NCBI GenBank assembly: GCA_964595205.1
Contig: CAZQOQ010000036.1
Span: 242,553-306,552, forward strand
DNA from: an uncultured Flavobacteriales bacterium
GTDB taxonomy: Bacteria > Bacteroidota > Bacteroidia > AKYH767-A > 2013-40CM-41-45
DNA: 64,000 nucleotides
Direction: 5' to 3'
The position numbers and the translations under genes are program-made. The stretch's first letter is position 1; every line of letters begins with the position of its first letter. Of this stretch, positions 25,551 through 37,568 are shown one piece after another. The notes beneath the pieces were generated by a model, which searched no databases, was not told the origin of the DNA, and saw nothing but the letters and a program-made list of their open reading frames with translations.

Positions 25551-27023
25551 ATGAAAAAAAGTTTACTCATAAGAGCAGCTCTTATTTTCTTTATCAGTTC
25601 TCTTTTTGTAACTGAAATAAGAGCGCAGTTCAATTCTCAGGCTAATCGCAATTTCAGCAGGGAATCGCTTGCGTTTAAACCCATCAGGATCGAAAAGACC
25701 CTCTTCAGTGAAGATGCTGTCGATGACACTCTGTATATAAAGAAAAGATTCTGGCGGGCTTCCGGTGAATTAATGTTAGTACAAGTGATTCCTTGGGCAT
25801 ATAACTATTTTGTAAGAGACGCAGAATTTGCTCACATCACCTGGGAAAGCATCTGGTATAACATGCATTTTAAAAACTGGGAATGGGATGATAATAGTTT
25901 TAATACAAATCAGTTTGCTCACCCATATCAGGGAAACATGTATTTCAGTTCTTTCAGAACCAATGGATATAGTTTCTGGGAATCGGCACCTGCTGCTTTT
26001 ATAGGCAGTTATATGTGGGAAGTTGCCGGTGAAACTCATCCCGCTGCTCCCAATGATTTACTCAATACAGGATTGGGTGGAATTTCTCTTGGTGAAATGA
26101 CCTATCGTTTTTCGAACTTAATTGTCGATAACAAACAAACAGGATTTAAACGGCAGGTTAATGAAGTGCTTGCATTCCTCGTCAATCCCATGAACGGGCT
26201 GAACAGGATCATCGACGGAAACTGGGGCAGGGTAAAGGCTAACCCGCCAGGCAGGGTACCCGGTTTTCTCAGCGGTAACTTCGATGTCGGCTACAGGCGG
26301 TACAGTCAGAATGTCGATGACGTATTCACAAAAGGCAATAACGAATTTTATGTCAGGGCAAGTATTCAATATGGAAATCCATTTACAGATTTCGAAAAAC
26401 CATTCAGCAGCTTTGCTCTCATCGGCGAATTAGGAGCTTCCGATTCCGCCACTCTCAATAACCTGCAGGTTGTAGGCAGTCTCTATGGAAATACCCTGAA
26501 GGAAAATGAAAGTGTAAATCATATATTGTTGGTTACAATGAATTATGATTATATCAAGAATACTTCTATACAGTTTGGCGGACAAAGTTTTAGTTTAAAG
26601 GTGCTTTCTGACCGGATCTATAAAAATAACAATCACTTTTACACTGAAGCAGGCATCATAGGAATTGCCATTGCTGCCATTCCCGACGATTATCTGTCAT
26701 ATGGCGAAGGAAGAAACTATGATTTTGGTCCCGGTGGAGGATTAATTTTAGGTTCCCGGCTGAGCTTGAATGATAAATTCTGGTGGAATATTAATTATAA
26801 AGGTCTATGGCTGCATACCGTGAATGGAAATGCTTCTGATTTCTTTATCAGTAATGGTTCTACAGATGTCAGGTACTTTATATCTTCCCAATTTTCACTC
26901 CAGGCCCAAATCGGTTATATTGTTCAAAACAGCAACTACAGGGATTTTGAAGACACCATAAAAAAATATCCTTACGGAAGAATCGGAATTGGATTTACTA
27001 TCGGTTCCAAAGAACATATTTAG
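25551..27023 (+). CDS. Secreted outer-membrane-type protein of unknown function (12 nt downstream of the octaheme cytochrome)
   Basis: 490 aa with a signal peptide (IRAQ), an aromatic-rich sequence with a conserved NQFAHPYQG motif, and a C-terminal Phe-rich strand. Confidence 0.45.
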   Translation: MKKSLLIRAALIFFISSLFVTEIRAQFNSQANRNFSRESLAFKPIRIEKTLFSEDAVDDTLYIKKRFWRASGELMLVQVIPWAYNYFVRDAEFAHITWESIWYNMHFKNWEWDDNSFNTNQFAHPYQGNMYFSSFRTNGYSFWESAPAAFIGSYMWEVAGETHPAAPNDLLNTGLGGISLGEMTYRFSNLIVDNKQTGFKRQVNEVLAFLVNPMNGLNRIIDGNWGRVKANPPGRVPGFLSGNFDVGYRRYSQNVDDVFTKGNNEFYVRASIQYGNPFTDFEKPFSSFALIGELGASDSATLNNLQVVGSLYGNTLKENESVNHILLVTMNYDYIKNTSIQFGGQSFSLKVLSDRIYKNNNHFYTEAGIIGIAIAAIPDDYLSYGEGRNYDFGPGGGLILGSRLSLNDKFWWNINYKGLWLHTVNGNASDFFISNGSTDVRYFISSQFSLQAQIGYIVQNSNYRDFEDTIKKYPYGRIGIGFTIGSKEHI

Positions 27024-32193: not shown

Positions 32194-32747
32194 TTAAATC
32201 GCTTTATTCAAATCGACTTCGGCGGGCTTCTTCCTGCTAAAAAGATTCCTGGCCGTGATGTATAATAAAAAAATGCTCAACAGCAGCGTATAAAATCCTA
32301 CAATAAACTGAATCGTATTTGTTCCCGTAAACGGATTCATAAAGATGAGACCGCCGAAAAAGACAGAAATAATTCCCATACTTATCAGAAATACCCTGGC
32401 ATTTTTACTTTTAATCGAAACAATGAGTTGTATAAGTCCTGATAAAATCGCCCACGCAGCCATGATCGTCGTAAATTTTCCGGCAGCTACATCAGCATTT
32501 CTGATCATGTAATAACCGGTAACTGCAAATGTGACTGAGACAAAAAGCAGCCACGGCCAATACGAAAGTTTTTTTCGCATCAGCAAACTCACGGCACCCT
32601 GAACACCTCCGATGATAAGCAACATCACGCCAAAGTAAAGCATCAGTGTTGGAACTGTCATGTTTGGTGCAGTTACGGAAACGATTCCCAAAATAAAAAG
32701 AGCAAGTCCTAAGATGCCCATCGTCCATAATAGTTGTTTTATCATTG
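32194..32747 (-). CDS. HdeD/DUF308-family membrane protein
   Basis: Repeated GxxxG-rich TM hairpins (MIKQLLWTMGILGLALFILGIVSV...). The start was moved to the internal ATG to avoid overlap with the upstream gene. Confidence 0.5.
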
Positions 32748-32770
32748 ATATTATTTTAATGGATGCGTTT

Positions 32771-34027
32771 TCAATATGCTTCCTGAAAATTAAAATATAA
32801 TCCGTTGGAGTCTTTCCCCCAGCCAAAATCGATGCGGACATTCAGCCTGTGCTCGACTTCAAACCGGTAGCCGATTCCGAAGTTTGGAAGAGTATTGACA
32901 AAGAATGATTTTCCGGTTTCCGGACCAATGCTTCCCACGGCACCCCAAACTACAAAGCCGCTTCGTTGGGCCATAAAAGAATTCCCATGAAATTTGTGTC
33001 GGTACTCAACAACAAAATTATTGCTAACACGATCCCGGAACCGTAACGTACGATACCCTCTGATGTCGTTCGAAGAACCCGAGTAACTTAGCTCACCATA
33101 AGGCACTTCATTAAAGCAGTGTCGGGCATGAAAATTAATCGCAATTATTCTTCCTTCTTTCTTCCTGGAAACGGAAAAATATTTTCTGTATTCCAGATCA
33201 AGTACCTGGTATCTATTTTGGCCTTTTAACGCATAGCTATATTTAGTAAAACTGAGGGCAACCATAGCCCCACTGTAAGCATTTTGTGGGAAATCGCGTG
33301 TATCATAGGATATTGCTCCTCCAAAACCAGTATTTTTATTTTTTGCTCCATCTTCAATGTAGTACTCGTCTCTTGCCATATGATCATTTACATCATACGC
33401 TTCTGTAAAATTCAAGTCAGCTACGAAACCAAGATAAACGGTCTTTGATATTTTCCACATAGGCTTACCATATACCTGCCAGTATATTCTTTTATACTTT
33501 GTTGAATCCGGATAGATGGTATTCAGGCCGTTTTCGTATCCTACTCCATAATAATGATCTGCCAGGTCACGGTATTGAAAAATTCCGGTCAATAATAAAT
33601 TGTTACTAAGGAAAAAAGTAGTCCAGTATGACGTGAGTAATTTCGAGCCATTACTCGAAATTGTAAATGCTACAGGCACCGATGATCTGGTTAATAATGT
33701 ATCGGATGGCTTTGTTGAAAATGTAACTAACGCACCCCCTGAAATTGCAAATTCCAGTTCGGGAGAATAAGCCGGTGCAATGTAGGGAGTAAAAACCCAT
33801 TTCCCGTCTTTGATTCGTTGCGCTTTCTTTTCTTTTTTCGTCAGAGGTTTTCCGGATGCTGCAGCCTTTGCACTATCTTCAGCACTTAATTTTGTATTTC
33901 GAATATTCGAAAAGACTTCATCAATTTTTATCAAATCCTTTTCTTTTTCAGGCTCCTGTGCCAGTAACATATTAACGAACAGTAACTGAAACAAAAACAG
34001 GATTTTTATGATAAATTTATTCTCCAA
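32771..34027 (-). CDS. Outer-membrane beta-barrel protein (Omp85/surface-antigen-like?)
   Basis: 418 aa with a signal peptide, a Lys-rich linker and a C-terminal ...YFNFQEAY. Confidence 0.4.
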   Translation of the reverse strand: MENKFIIKILFLFQLLFVNMLLAQEPEKEKDLIKIDEVFSNIRNTKLSAEDSAKAAASGKPLTKKEKKAQRIKDGKWVFTPYIAPAYSPELEFAISGGALVTFSTKPSDTLLTRSSVPVAFTISSNGSKLLTSYWTTFFLSNNLLLTGIFQYRDLADHYYGVGYENGLNTIYPDSTKYKRIYWQVYGKPMWKISKTVYLGFVADLNFTEAYDVNDHMARDEYYIEDGAKNKNTGFGGAISYDTRDFPQNAYSGAMVALSFTKYSYALKGQNRYQVLDLEYRKYFSVSRKKEGRIIAINFHARHCFNEVPYGELSYSGSSNDIRGYRTLRFRDRVSNNFVVEYRHKFHGNSFMAQRSGFVVWGAVGSIGPETGKSFFVNTLPNFGIGYRFEVEHRLNVRIDFGWGKDSNGLYFNFQEAY

Positions 34028-34291
34028 GAAATTCTTTTTTAAATCTATATTGAAAATTCAAATTAGAGCGGTTCATCTAATGTCGATAAATTGCGAAAGT
34101 TATACTTCAGACACAAGCCATCAATGAACGATATCAAACTGAAACCTGATTAATATCATATAATATACCTACAAGAATATAAAAAAGCATCGATTACTAC
34201 TAATAAATATGATTATTTTTGAAGCCGTATCCTGCTTTTCCAGGGTATATTTTTGTTAATTTTGATGCTCACTATATTTATGTACAGTGCC

Positions 34292-35458
34292 ATGAATAGA
34301 AAAAGATTTTCATTGTTAATTTTAGCATTCTGTTTGATAAGTGTTTCCGTTTTTTCTCAAACAGAAAACAAGACAGGAAAGGATACAACTTTATTGGGTT
34401 TGCCAGGAGATAATCTGAATCTCTATGCAGTCCTGGACCTTTTTCAAAAATCAAAGACTATAGAAGAATTTGAAAAAAACTTAAACCTGGAAAAAACAGG
34501 AATCAATAATCTGGATTTGAATTTAGACGGTAAAGTCGATTTCATAAAAGTTGAGACTAAAAAGAAAGACGATGATTTTACATTCATCCTTCAGGTTGAT
34601 GTAACTAAGTCGGAGAAACAAGATGTAGCCGTCATATTAGTTTCAAAGGATAAAAACAAGAAAGTTACAATGCAGATTGTAGGCGACAAAGATCTATACG
34701 GTAAGGATTTTATTGTTGAACCTAAAGAGACTACGACCCCCGCAAAAACTCCAAATCCTGGTTATACGGGAGACAATCCCGACACTGTTTATGTGCCTGC
34801 AAAAACTACCACAGTAGTAGTCGAGTCAACGCCTATCGTTCAGTATGTATATTCACCTGCATATGTTCCATATTATCCGCCGTATTATTATGGATATTAT
34901 CCGCCCTATTTTGCCACGTTTGCTGTTGTTTCAATGAGCATATATTGGGGTAGCCATGCACATTATTACGGAGGTTACGGGTATCATGGAAATACAACTG
35001 TAATACATAATACAAATAATTTTAATAATTATAATAACATCAGAAATACTTCCAATACCGTTAGAAATAATGCAGGGCAGGGAAATTACAACAGAGGGAA
35101 TAATGTTTCAACACGTCCGTCTACAGGTGCCGGCGGTTCTGGTCGCCCGTCAACGGGCACCGGCGGTGGTGGAGGCACCCGGCCGTCGACCCAACCATCA
35201 CGTGGTGGCAATGCAGGCTCCGCAGGCGGAGGCGCGCGACCATCCACTCAGCCATCAACCGGAATGGGTGGTGGTGGAGGCAACCCTGGAGTTTCTACAC
35301 AACCATCAAATCGATCTTCAGGTGGATTTTCAGGATCGCAAGGAGGTTCCCGTCCGTCTACACAACCATCAACACGTTCTTCCGGCGGAGGCTCGCGTTT
35401 TAGCGGAGGCGGAGGCTCAAGAGGCGGAGGTGGAAGAGGCGGCGGCGGAAGAAGATAA
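34292..35458 (+). CDS. Secreted protein with folded N-domain, Tyr/Pro-rich hydrophobic segment, Asn-rich linker and Gly/Ser/Arg (RGG-like) repeat tail
   Basis: Signal peptide MNRKRFSLLILAFCLISVSVFSQ. The Tyr/Pro-rich segment is YSPAYVPYYPPYYYGYYPPYF. Five RPSTQPS repeats occur within Gly runs, and the tail ends GGGGSRGGGGRGGGGRR. Confidence 0.6.
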   Translation: MNRKRFSLLILAFCLISVSVFSQTENKTGKDTTLLGLPGDNLNLYAVLDLFQKSKTIEEFEKNLNLEKTGINNLDLNLDGKVDFIKVETKKKDDDFTFILQVDVTKSEKQDVAVILVSKDKNKKVTMQIVGDKDLYGKDFIVEPKETTTPAKTPNPGYTGDNPDTVYVPAKTTTVVVESTPIVQYVYSPAYVPYYPPYYYGYYPPYFATFAVVSMSIYWGSHAHYYGGYGYHGNTTVIHNTNNFNNYNNIRNTSNTVRNNAGQGNYNRGNNVSTRPSTGAGGSGRPSTGTGGGGGTRPSTQPSRGGNAGSAGGGARPSTQPSTGMGGGGGNPGVSTQPSNRSSGGFSGSQGGSRPSTQPSTRSSGGGSRFSGGGGSRGGGGRGGGGRR

Positions 35459-35544
35459 AATTTACTATTTACCTGACTTCATTATTCTTTAATCGATATT
35501 ATTTTGTTCAATATTGAAAATCGATTAACGAATGATGTAGCTAT

Positions 35545-36036
35545 TTATTCAATGGGCATATCAGAGGTACTCATTTCTCTTACGCTCACATATTTCCCAT
35601 TTCTTTTCTCAAATAGAACCATGTAGTTTCCTGTATTAATAGGAACATTTGCAGAATCGACCAATTTGTAATATCCAATTTCTAAAACCTGGTTCCCATC
35701 ATTGGATGGAAAAACATCATTGGTTTTAAAAGAAATTACATTACCCGTCGCAGAGGAATCGAAACTGGCTTTTATATAATCTAGAATTGCAGGTTTGCCG
35801 ATCAAAGGAGCTTTGTTTTCAGAAAAGACCACAGCATCATCTGCATAATAGCCGATATTCTTCATTTCACCTGAATTGTATACGGCAGCAAATTCATTTT
35901 CCCTGTCCTGAATTTCTTTTTTAATTTGTTCTTTATCGACCGTTACTGCTGCCTTCTGTTCATTTTTTGAATTGCATGAGACAGTCATAGAAATAAAACA
36001 GGAAAGAATGATTCCGGTTAAAATTTTATTTTTCAT
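35545..36036 (-). CDS. SnoaL/NTF2-like (DUF4440-like) lipoprotein
   Basis: Start MKNKILTGIILSCFISMTVSC (lipobox). About 160 aa. Confidence 0.4.
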   Translation of the reverse strand: MKNKILTGIILSCFISMTVSCNSKNEQKAAVTVDKEQIKKEIQDRENEFAAVYNSGEMKNIGYYADDAVVFSENKAPLIGKPAILDYIKASFDSSATGNVISFKTNDVFPSNDGNQVLEIGYYKLVDSANVPINTGNYMVLFEKRNGKYVSVREMSTSDMPIE

Positions 36037-36116: not shown

Positions 36117-36698
36117 TTATTTTACATCGAGTGTGCTCGATTCGCTGAGTACCTTGTCAAGGTGCAGCCATCCAAATTTTCTTGCCTGGAAATAATTCAA
36201 ATCTTTGCCTGCAAAATTTTTTCTTATGATGTCGTCAAGAATTTCCTTTCTCACGAGGTATTTATTCAGATCTTCTGTTTTGATTTTAAGGTTATTCTTC
36301 CGGATGTATTCTTTAAACAGATCCAAATGCTGATCGCTGAAGATTGGATAGATGTCAGGCTTATGATAATTGCAATAAATAGAAGCAAAGTTAAGCAGTC
36401 GGTATGGGGTCCCGTTAAACTTAATATCAGCAATATCTTCAACCACCGAGAGGTCGTTTGAATTTAATTTCTTGTCGATGTTTAATTTTAATATATGATC
36501 TGCCATAACATCAACTGCACCCAGTTTCTTAATGTCGCCATGATTGATTGCACTGATTTTATTTTTAATGGTTTCCTTGTCATTGTTTAATGGATTCTTT
36601 TCAAAGAACTCCATATTCCTGATGTCGCTGACAAAATACATTTCCTGACCCTGCAGAGTATCGAAGTGTTTTTTGATATTGTTGCTTAAATTTTCCAT
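36117..36698 (-). CDS. Hypothetical cytoplasmic protein, AT-rich orphan
   Basis: 193 aa with no signal peptide. GC is visibly lower than that of neighbouring genes. Confidence 0.35.
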   Translation of the reverse strand: MENLSNNIKKHFDTLQGQEMYFVSDIRNMEFFEKNPLNNDKETIKNKISAINHGDIKKLGAVDVMADHILKLNIDKKLNSNDLSVVEDIADIKFNGTPYRLLNFASIYCNYHKPDIYPIFSDQHLDLFKEYIRKNNLKIKTEDLNKYLVRKEILDDIIRKNFAGKDLNYFQARKFGWLHLDKVLSESSTLDVK

Positions 36699-36860: not shown

Positions 36861-37568
36861 TTACTTTCTTAGTAAATTGTGCTTGTTAATATCATCAACC
36901 ACTAATTTGGCGAAAGCATTAAACAATTCCGTTGAAGGTTCTTTCGTATAGCTTTTTGATTGACCGAACCAGAGTAAATCGGGAGTATTAACATCGAATA
37001 AACGACTTTCAATTATTACTTCCACATCGGTAACTGTATAACCTGGCGTTTCACGGGTTTCATAAATTGTCTGGTAATTCAGTGCAGAATAATTGTAGTA
37101 ATTATAATAATTGCCATAATAACTATTGTAGTACGGATTATAAGGTGTTGCATAAGTGCCAACCGGTACCTGTTCGGTTGTTCCGGGAACATATCGTTCT
37201 TTCTCGGTAACATTTGTAATAGCATTGGTAAGTAACATATCTACATTATTCTGGCGAAGCAGGTTTACCATTGTGGCAGAATCGTATTTCTGAACGTCCG
37301 GCTTGAAGACATCCAGTGCTGCTATCGCATTGTGTCCGCCTGCTTTCATCAAAGCAACAATATCATTTTCAACTACCATCCGGTTATTTAAATCTTTGCC
37401 TAAAACCATTACCATGATCTTTGGGCTGCTTTTTACTGTTGCTGTCTTATTAGACCACGATGATGTCAGTACGATTGGTTCAGCGCATGAAGAGATGAAA
37501 ATAGCCACAATGAATAAAAAGACAAGCTGCCTGATTTTTAACAGAAAATAATTTTTCATAATAATCAA
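36861..37568 (-). CDS. Hypothetical lipoprotein
   Basis: 235 aa, lipobox ISSC, Tyr/Asn-rich C-terminal half. Confidence 0.4.
   Translation of the reverse strand: MIIMKNYFLLKIRQLVFLFIVAIFISSCAEPIVLTSSWSNKTATVKSSPKIMVMVLGKDLNNRMVVENDIVALMKAGGHNAIAALDVFKPDVQKYDSATMVNLLRQNNVDMLLTNAITNVTEKERYVPGTTEQVPVGTYATPYNPYYNSYYGNYYNYYNYSALNYQTIYETRETPGYTVTDVEVIIESRLFDVNTPDLLWFGQSKSYTKEPSTELFNAFAKLVVDDINKHNLLRK

Follow-up and report, generated by a model that had tools for sequence, protein, structure and literature searches.

The window analysed here was a stretch of 64,000 nucleotides (nt) from an uncultured Flavobacteriales bacterium (assembly GCA_964595205.1, contig CAZQOQ010000036.1, forward-strand positions 242,553 to 306,552), and its gene at 34292..35458 (+), coding for 388 amino acids (aa) plus a stop codon, belonged to a very large unnamed Bacteroidota/Ignavibacteria family, common and probably envelope-located, and was not an oddity; the statements on the identity of the protein and its family were regarded as nearly certain. 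The preferred reading as a whole, with a probability of about 0.4, was that of a Sec-exported envelope protein forming a two-gene periplasmic module with a lipoprotein encoded next to it.

The word-indexed search with this main protein returned 3,301 homologous protein clusters at E ≤ 1e-3, and among the 120 matches listed, the 119 non-identical ones were 56–78% identical to it with most of the query length covered. The exhaustive HMMER search (query aa 24–262, against representatives of 50%-identity clusters) found 1,195 representatives, 789 of them at E ≤ 1e-10, and a scan of one genome per species placed the family in at least 583 species genomes. The hosts included Bacteroidales, Cytophagales (Chryseolinea, Cyclobacteriaceae, and Algoriphagus), Flavobacteriales (many Flavobacterium), Chitinophagales (Chitinophagaceae), Saprospiraceae, Lentimicrobium, and Ignavibacteriales. 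The family shared one architecture, composed of a signal peptide with Gln at +1, an alpha/beta head, an aromatic/Pro block, a His/Tyr/Asn block, and an acid-poor basic tail ending RR; homology was co-linear over the full length, with the GLPGD head, the aromatic block, an RxxSxxV motif, and the basic C-terminus all retained, and the order of blocks stayed unchanged in 44 diverse representatives with 27–61% identity to the main protein. Existing labels of the homologues were 'hypothetical protein', 'YgcG' (JGI), and 'DUF3300 domain-containing' (UniRef). Pfam and NCBIfam scans of the main protein gave sub-threshold matches only (DUF3300, together with AcrIIA2 and SaoC as noise), and among 45 diverse members Pfam showed no relevant match either. 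The first-pass annotation had called such a tail unusual on a signal-peptide-bearing bacterial protein and had proposed a search for homologues with similar tails; basic-tailed homologues were found in large numbers (>3,300 clusters), and since the whole design recurred across the phylum, and Gly/Arg tails were present in proteobacterial DUF3300 proteins as well, the word unusual was misplaced.

The main protein carried a predicted Sec signal peptide (aa 1–22; 34292..34357, +) with the hydrophobic core FSLLILAFCLISVSV and the predicted cleavage site …VSVFS|Q. Q23 was invariant in the close-subfamily alignment A1 and at least 90% conserved in alignment A2, and an [ASGTC]Q site stood upstream of the head in all 118 close and 96 of 105 distant homologues. 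Gln at +1 corresponds to the Bacteroidetes Q-rule for signal peptidase I substrates (PMC5837995, PMC10653852). The protein is thus predicted to carry an export signal, in agreement with the first-pass annotation. A D-[ST]-[AILVMT] motif was located directly before GLPGD in 113 of 118 close homologues, and it presumably matches the Bacteroidetes periplasmic O-glycosylation sequon.

Convergent with the main gene, and 86 nt from its stop codon, was the partner gene (35545..36036, −). Its product was a lipoprotein of 163 aa with an NTF2-like domain of the DUF4440/SnoaL kind, which Pfam matched only below threshold (DUF4440, E = 9e-4; SnoaL_2, E = 2e-3), and with a lipobox Cys21 that was invariant in 39 sequences. 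Of 83 related loci, 62 had a partner homologue (38–77% identity) no more than 2 kb away from the main gene, and these 62 pairs displayed three orientations: (i) convergent downstream in 50 (median gap 255 nt), (ii) divergent upstream in 7, and (iii) co-directional in 5. The partner adjoined each of six homologues looked up individually, and de novo ORF (open reading frame) clustering of the 83 loci recovered it in 60, the next commonest neighbour occurring in 12; the partner was the only widely conserved neighbour of the main gene. This adjacency survived inversion across several orders, which argues for a functional pair. Among Flavobacterium, six loci (L038, L045, L048, L050, L056, and L061) held copies 40–44% identical to the query without the partner gene, while other loci (52–60% identity) did carry it; from these identities, Flavobacterium probably carries two paralogues, only one of which is paired with the lipoprotein gene. 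In the surface-lipoprotein export signal C-X-K-(D/E)2-X, K stands at +3 and acidic residues at +4/+5, while K is reported to be absent from +4 and a shifted motif to export poorly (PMC5080379). The N-terminus of the partner had the consensus C-N-x-K-K-E-E (K at +4, acidic residues at +6/+7; C-N-S-K-N-E-Q in the window copy); it resembled the signal but missed this position rule, which weakly favours a periplasm-facing lipoprotein. The PDB sequence search with the partner returned nothing.

Behind the head, the main protein displayed an aromatic/proline block PIVQYVYSPAYVPYYPPYYYGYYPPYF (aa 181–207; 34832..34912, +), which contained 11 Tyr and 7 Pro (26% proline) and was near-invariant in 120 close homologues; in 45 diverse members it had the consensus WPxVxYxYxPxYVxWxSPWYWGYYPxWWxPW, i.e., a Trp/Tyr/Pro/Arg block. 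The Wimley-White interfacial energy of the best 19-mer was −7.4 kcal/mol here, with a median of −10.6 among family representatives. The block had been described as amyloid-like, a description that found no support in its proline content, which at a high level disfavours amyloid, or in the composition in the wider family. Further downstream was a conserved His/Tyr then Asn-rich block HGNTTVIHNTNNFNNYNNIRNTSNTV (aa 222–272; 34955..35107, +) with 16 Asn, in which N240, N242, N245, Y247, R251, S254, and V257 were invariant in 120 sequences and H232 and G233 invariant or nearly so; the Asn-richness noted earlier was borne out, but these invariant positions indicated a motif and not the low-complexity linker that had been proposed.

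The tail (aa 273–388; 35108..35455, +) was composed of RPST(Q/G)PS-type repeats in Gly runs and ended with GGGGSRGGGGRGGGGRR. Its 116 residues included 43 Gly, 23 Ser, 13 Arg, and no Asp or Glu, giving a net charge of +13, and 4% of them were hydrophobic; with a predicted local distance difference test score (pLDDT) below 50 in the AlphaFold model, the tail was very probably disordered. It contained three RGG motifs (aa 304, 377, and 382), of which the second and third were two residues apart. The family tails varied in sequence and length (20–333 aa), their median net charge was +16 (n = 118, close) or +19 (n = 92, representatives, only one of which was at or below zero), and a basic C-terminus was found in 116 of 118 close and 97 of 105 distant homologues; the family-wide trait was accordingly a basic, acid-poor tail (often Lys/Ser/Pro/Gln-rich) and not RGG as such.

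It had been proposed from these segments that the protein is a secreted matrix or adhesive protein outside the outer membrane, either an amyloid-like or phase-separating biofilm component or a sortase-free anchor, and this was considered unlikely. The signal peptide, the Tyr/Pro-rich block, the Asn-rich stretch of prion-like composition, and the disordered Gly/Arg tail, near the end of which two RGG motifs lay in close succession, were all consistent with the proposal, as was the presence of gliding or surface-attached Bacteroidota among many of the hosts. It was opposed by five observations: (i) there was no match to a type IX secretion or any other Pfam domain, hence no known outer-membrane route; (ii) 26% Pro in the aromatic block disfavours amyloid; (iii) the invariant positions of the Asn-rich stretch were unlike generic low complexity; (iv) 60–78% identity across orders resembled a housekeeping part, not a variable adhesin; and (v) the partner lipoprotein failed the position rule of the surface export signal. 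In particular, the type IX secretion C-terminal sorting domain (Por_Secre_tail and related) had no Pfam or NCBIfam match, the C-terminus being the disordered Gly/Arg tail; for sortase/exosortase-type signals (LPXTG, PEP-CTERM, GlyGly-CTERM, and others), a basic cluster was present with no hydrophobic helix before it; and for functional amyloids (curli CsgA and Fap), there was no Pfam match and no csgG- or fapF-like gene among the conserved neighbours, in addition to the Pro-rich Tyr block. From the earlier proposals, an envelope role fitted the data, while nothing specific was left behind a biofilm-matrix component or a sortase-independent surface anchor.

The aromatic block was followed by a short hydrophobic stretch ATFAVVSMSIYWGS (aa 208–221; 34913..34954, +), which was not a predicted transmembrane helix. 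After residue 120, the highest Kyte-Doolittle 19-residue mean of the main protein was 0.81, and the Hessa sum of its best 19-mer was +7.9; the family median of the highest Kyte-Doolittle mean was 0.8–1.1, a mean of at least 1.6 was reached by 5 of 245 members (2 among the 119 close sequences and 3 among the 126 representatives), and no 19-mer in any of the 245 had a Hessa sum of 1.5 or less, all these calls being made with simple scales (Kyte-Doolittle and Hessa) and not with a trained predictor. Distant members had an Arg/Pro/His/Trp sequence at this position, e.g., WRPWRPVYWSVYHPYW. A conserved transmembrane anchor was rejected from the hydropathy scales and from this replacement. Because no transmembrane helix was predicted, the tail is probably exported; given export of the protein, it would probably lie outside nucleic-acid-rich compartments.

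The contrary topology, a single-pass type I inner-membrane protein with a periplasmic head, a membrane span formed by the stretch behind the Tyr/Pro block, and a cytoplasmic RGG-type tail binding nucleic acid, ribosomes, or polyphosphate, was decidedly unlikely. The positive-inside rule favours a cytoplasmic location for a tail of +13 to +38, proteobacterial DUF3300 proteins carry in the corresponding place a hydrophobic segment rich in Gly and Ala (Kyte-Doolittle mean 1.7–1.9), and 47 of 119 close homologues reached a Kyte-Doolittle mean of at least 1.2. Such a protein would nevertheless need a hydrophobic helix of about 19 or more residues after the exported domain, which was absent by both scales from the main protein and, at the thresholds above, from nearly all members by Kyte-Doolittle and from all by Hessa; moreover, the segment in distant members contained Arg, Pro, and His.

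The conserved folded N-terminal domain (head; aa 23–170; 34358..34801, +) was predicted as three short helices plus a four-strand antiparallel sheet, followed by a conserved TPNPGYxG strip; its pLDDT was >90 and the folded part extended to about aa 145–170, consistent with the folded N-domain of about 170 aa recognized at first pass. No relative was found among solved structures (nothing in the PDB search with the family profile; best E of 0.24 in Foldseek against PDB). The head contained an Asp/Asn loop INNLDLNLDGKVDF (aa 72–85; 34505..34546, +). Across 45 diverse members, N72, D75, L76, and D83 of this loop never varied, and conservation of N73 and D79 was at least 90%. In sequence the loop was reminiscent of a calcium-binding loop, and the main protein had the strict DxNxDGxxD pattern, yet only 27 of 118 close and 44 of 105 distant homologues did.

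A metal-handling envelope protein, in which this loop and the His/Tyr-rich stretch would bind Ca2+ or transition metals and the tail would be only a spacer, was improbable. The conserved NNLDLxxDxxxD loop, the conserved His226 and His232, and longer His runs elsewhere (e.g., HHHHH in homologue P0002 and DHDHHHHD in YacH) pointed in this direction, while the low frequency of the strict calcium-loop pattern, the widely varying His count, and the absence of any conserved neighbour for the transport of metals or resistance to them pointed away from it, and the conserved cationic tail was left unexplained.

A toxin or antimicrobial precursor plus its immunity protein, with a Trp/Tyr/Pro/Arg block resembling membrane-active peptides of the indolicidin or tritrpticin type and the NTF2-like neighbour as the immunity factor, was highly improbable. 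NTF2-like immunity proteins occur in polymorphic toxin systems, the small partner gene was tightly linked, and the family consensus SPWYWGYYPxWWxPW was followed by an Arg-rich sequence; on the other side, the strong conservation across orders with essentially one ortholog per locus was unlike arms-race toxins, the convergent orientation was atypical for toxin-immunity pairs, and Pfam and NCBIfam scans showed neither a toxin domain nor a secretion system or a site for processing.

Lastly, an artefactual Gly/Arg tail, produced by a frameshift or by mis-assembly of GC-rich repeat DNA, to which the base composition and repetitiveness of the tail region and the alternative-frame ends of a few homologues in other assemblies (P0117, P0102, and P0239) might point, was effectively refuted by the following data. 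The main ORF ran on the + strand from 34253 (TTG) or 34292 (ATG) to 35458, ATG 34292 being the start position of the homologues and giving the 388-aa product; all the segments described at first pass were present in it (ORF list, composition, and translation). The GC (guanine plus cytosine) content of the tail DNA was 0.58–0.64 versus about 0.30–0.40 in the surroundings, and its repeats shared only 60–85% mutual identity. Five RPSTQPS repeats had been reported, but the exact heptapeptide occurred three times (aa 297, 316, and 354), STQPS four times, and only RPST five times; the three RPSTQPS copies differed in their codons (CGG/CGA/CGT, TCG/TCC/TCT, and ACC/ACT/ACA). The reading frame followed the family consensus up to the last residue (GGGGRR), and the last or next-to-last residue was basic in 116 of 118 close homologues, i.e., the same frame was retained. 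A 100% identical protein was present in NCBI (P0001, on a 397-kb contig, where the choice of an upstream ATG makes it 397 aa long) and, independently, in a Logan assembly. Given the degenerate DNA repeats, the synonymous codon differences, the frame agreement with homologues, and the identical public protein, the main ORF was a real gene, and its tail was neither a chance product nor one of frameshift or assembly error, the case in which the first-pass annotation would have fallen.

A spurious 140-aa ORF (35070..35492) covered the GC-rich tail; it had been called antisense but was on the + strand in the +1 frame. The C-termini of P0117, P0102, and P0239 left the Gly/Arg frame (e.g., …EAEAEAEEDN in P0239 and P0117) and read like this alternative-frame ORF, which points to frameshifts, either erroneous or real, within the G-rich tail in those assemblies; the drift would make the region error-prone there but not here. 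Just upstream of the start codon, an 8-bp stem-loop then ATTTTTG was observed at 34227–34257 (+); the TATTTTTG in this place presumably fits the Bacteroidetes −7 promoter element TAnnTTTG, and if so, transcription would start after TTG 34253, in favour of ATG 34292 as the start. The scan for sigma-70 promoters and terminators gave counts no higher than chance; the phylum Bacteroidota uses promoter types other than sigma-70.

The sequence comparison was extended to DUF3300 (PF11737; YacH family), because aa 162–251 (34775..35044, +) of the main protein resembled the C-terminal module of that family. In Pfam, aa 163–252 matched positions 137–217 of the 227-position DUF3300 hidden Markov model (HMM) below threshold (11.8 bits, E = 0.17; cut-off 25 bits), and none of 45 diverse family members matched it at E ≤ 0.01. 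The hhalign comparison of alignment A1 with four DUF3300 proteins (Escherichia coli YacH and the DUF3300-DUF2950 operon proteins of Ensifer, Eleftheria, and Paraburkholderia) gave a probability of 96.6%, an E value of 5e-10, and 82 co-linear columns (aa 162–251), in which the Asn-rich block was aligned with the GDxNINVNxxN block of DUF3300 proteins. The real score was 79.4, compared with 30 for the reversed alignment, 12–22 in 15 global column shuffles, and 25–66 in 15 local shuffles made within 30-column windows and thus retaining the regional composition. Judged from these alignments, the C-terminal two-thirds of the main protein was certainly built like, and probably homologous to, the C-terminal part of DUF3300 proteins. 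The DUF3300 core (APIALYPD-type helical N-terminal region, HMM positions 1–136) was absent, its place being taken by the different alpha/beta head, so the main protein was not a DUF3300 member in the Pfam sense.

DUF3300 is reported always to precede an adjacent DUF2950 gene in rhizobia (PMC4653623). The partner of the main gene as a distant DUF2950 was rejected (hhalign probability 0.3%), the window neighbour being DUF4440-like; the parallel with DUF3300-DUF2950 is therefore one of organisation and not of homology. In E. coli, the Cpx system regulates yacH and cationic peptides repress it, and cells from which the gene was deleted survive better on protamine, a polycation (PMC9600279), which fits an envelope-charge role for DUF3300-type proteins; full-text literature searches turned up DUF3300 in three papers and DUF2950 in one, with no functional data beyond these protamine and Cpx data. 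A DUF3943 protein gene (25551–27023, +; E = 3.5e-35) was present about 7 kb upstream of the main gene in the window and also upstream in the close relative L002, and a DUF3943 gene was directly upstream of the DUF3300-DUF2950 operon in Eleftheria terrae (L087, 1962–2807); the occurrence of DUF3943 near both systems may be a coincidence or a further link.

The preferred reading, an exported envelope protein paired with a periplasm-facing lipoprotein, suggests the following mechanism, which is tentative in its compartment, interface binding, polyanion binding, and head-partner contact alike. Signal peptidase I would cut before Gln23, and the protein would stay in the cell envelope, either within the periplasm or at a membrane surface that faces it. 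The alpha/beta head may act as a specific interaction domain, its likeliest partner being the adjacent NTF2-like lipoprotein. Since the Tyr/Trp/Pro block comes without a transmembrane helix, it would sit peripherally in the interfacial zone of a membrane leaflet. The acid-free Gly/Ser/Arg tail of 116 residues would be a flexible polycation that might bind anionic envelope material, such as the phosphates of phospholipid or lipopolysaccharide, the carboxylates of peptidoglycan, or acidic polysaccharide, and the pair could thereby serve the envelope as a tether, a spacer, or a buffer of charge. A bolder version, in which the pair would be a phylum-wide, unrecognised Bacteroidota envelope module, the counterpart of the proteobacterial DUF3300-DUF2950 pair, and its periplasmic polycationic disordered tail would organise or bridge anionic layers of the envelope as a charge-based tether or condensate between membrane and cell wall, was thought unlikely as it stands.

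Several points weighed against the preferred reading. Passage of a +13 tail through Sec would be energetically awkward, and a cytoplasmic tail would fit better. The genes of 50 of the 62 paired loci were convergent and hence not co-transcribed, the adjacency of the partner could partly be inherited synteny, and 15 loci with full flanks had no partner; the loci without it included the Flavobacterium copies at 40–44% identity to the query. Much of the DUF3300 alignment score came from regional composition (1 of 15 local shuffles reached 65.6 versus the real 79.4), and the diverse alignment A3 reached an hhalign probability of only 14% against DUF3300, leaving the homology moderate. Structure and family searches gave no functional clue for the head or the partner, and no experiment on, or localisation data for, any family member was found.

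As the gene had already been catalogued as a hypothetical protein and the family was huge, the specimen itself was ordinary. What was new comprised (i) the fixed NTF2-like lipoprotein partner gene, (ii) a C-terminal module of the DUF3300 type, apparently in a Bacteroidota variant joined to another head, and (iii) a tail that is probably exported. The family was among the larger wholly uncharacterised ones of Bacteroidota, had neither a Pfam model nor a solved structure, and bore a misleading 'YgcG' label. Together, the fixed partner, the module shared with YacH/DUF3300, and the probably exported tail turned a compositional curiosity into a testable two-gene system, for which tractable hosts exist in Flavobacterium species and Chryseolinea serpens DSM 24574. 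Should the tail prove to work in the periplasm, bacteria would offer a clear example of a long, polycationic and disordered region that acts outside the cytoplasm; otherwise, a sound annotation for thousands of genes is still gained. A charge-based envelope module, if true, would be a new principle of envelope architecture in Bacteroidota.

Other genes around the main gene were also compared across 84 loci. The Omp85-family outer-membrane protein gene (32771–34027, −; Pfam Omp85, E = 1e-7) was divergent from the main gene and common to the window and the closest relative L002 but not to the wider family (3 of 84 loci). In the ORF list, the DUF308 (HdeD-like) membrane protein gene (32194–32841, −) overlapped the 3′ end of the Omp85-like gene by about 70 nt; the DUF308 gene therefore probably begins further downstream than listed. 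A 235-aa putative lipoprotein (36861–37568, −; …FISSC|AEP) contained a Tyr-rich insert PYNPYYNSYYGNYYNYYNYSALNY and had no Pfam or NCBIfam match; only 10 of the 84 loci had a homologue of it at a distance of a few kb from the main gene, too few for module membership, but it would make a second Tyr-rich envelope protein encoded in this neighbourhood. The Omp85-like gene, the 235-aa lipoprotein, and DUF308 (3, 10, and 0 of 84 loci, respectively) were rejected as conserved neighbours. Between the partner and the Tyr-rich lipoprotein genes was a 193-aa ORF (36117–36698, −) without a family match; one further locus (L020, Roseivirgaceae) had a 46%-identical copy in the corresponding place.

The main protein was finally compared with four known systems. 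Indolicidin and tritrpticin, a physical analogy only, likewise have dense Trp/Tyr and Pro followed by an Arg-rich part, and the interfacial partitioning calculated for the block was strongly favourable; here, in contrast, the block was an internal segment of a conserved 388-aa protein with a folded domain, with no sign of processing or antimicrobial activity and no homology. YgcG/TPM-domain membrane proteins share an exported N-terminal domain followed by a Gly-rich C-terminal tail, but the main protein had no TPM domain match (Pfam and NCBIfam) and no predicted transmembrane helix; the JGI 'YgcG' label probably derives from the Gly-rich tail and apparently rests on tail composition. Eukaryotic RGG/RG-motif regions are defined by at least two RGG motifs within a few residues of a disordered region, and the Gly/Arg-rich disordered C-terminus of the main protein contained such a pair (aa 377 and 382, pLDDT <50); the likeness was compositional only, the main protein differing in being exported, in having only three RGG motifs, and in belonging to a family whose tails are not RGG-defined. 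DUF3300 proteins differed from the main family in their Gly/Ala-rich, transmembrane-like hydrophobic segment, which is aromatic in the main family, and in having DUF2950 in an operon versus a usually convergent NTF2-like lipoprotein gene as the partner. They nevertheless shared with the main protein (i) a signal peptide followed by an N-terminal domain of their own, (ii) the block order PxxVYVPxYxP…YPPYY, short hydrophobic segment, His-/aromatic-rich stretch, N-rich NINVNxxN, and long basic low-complexity tail, (iii) tails with nearly the same Gly/Arg ending (…HRGGGGRGGGGRRR in Ensifer and …GMRGGGGFRGGRR in Paraburkholderia), and (iv) the pairing with one gene for a small exported protein (PMC4653623).

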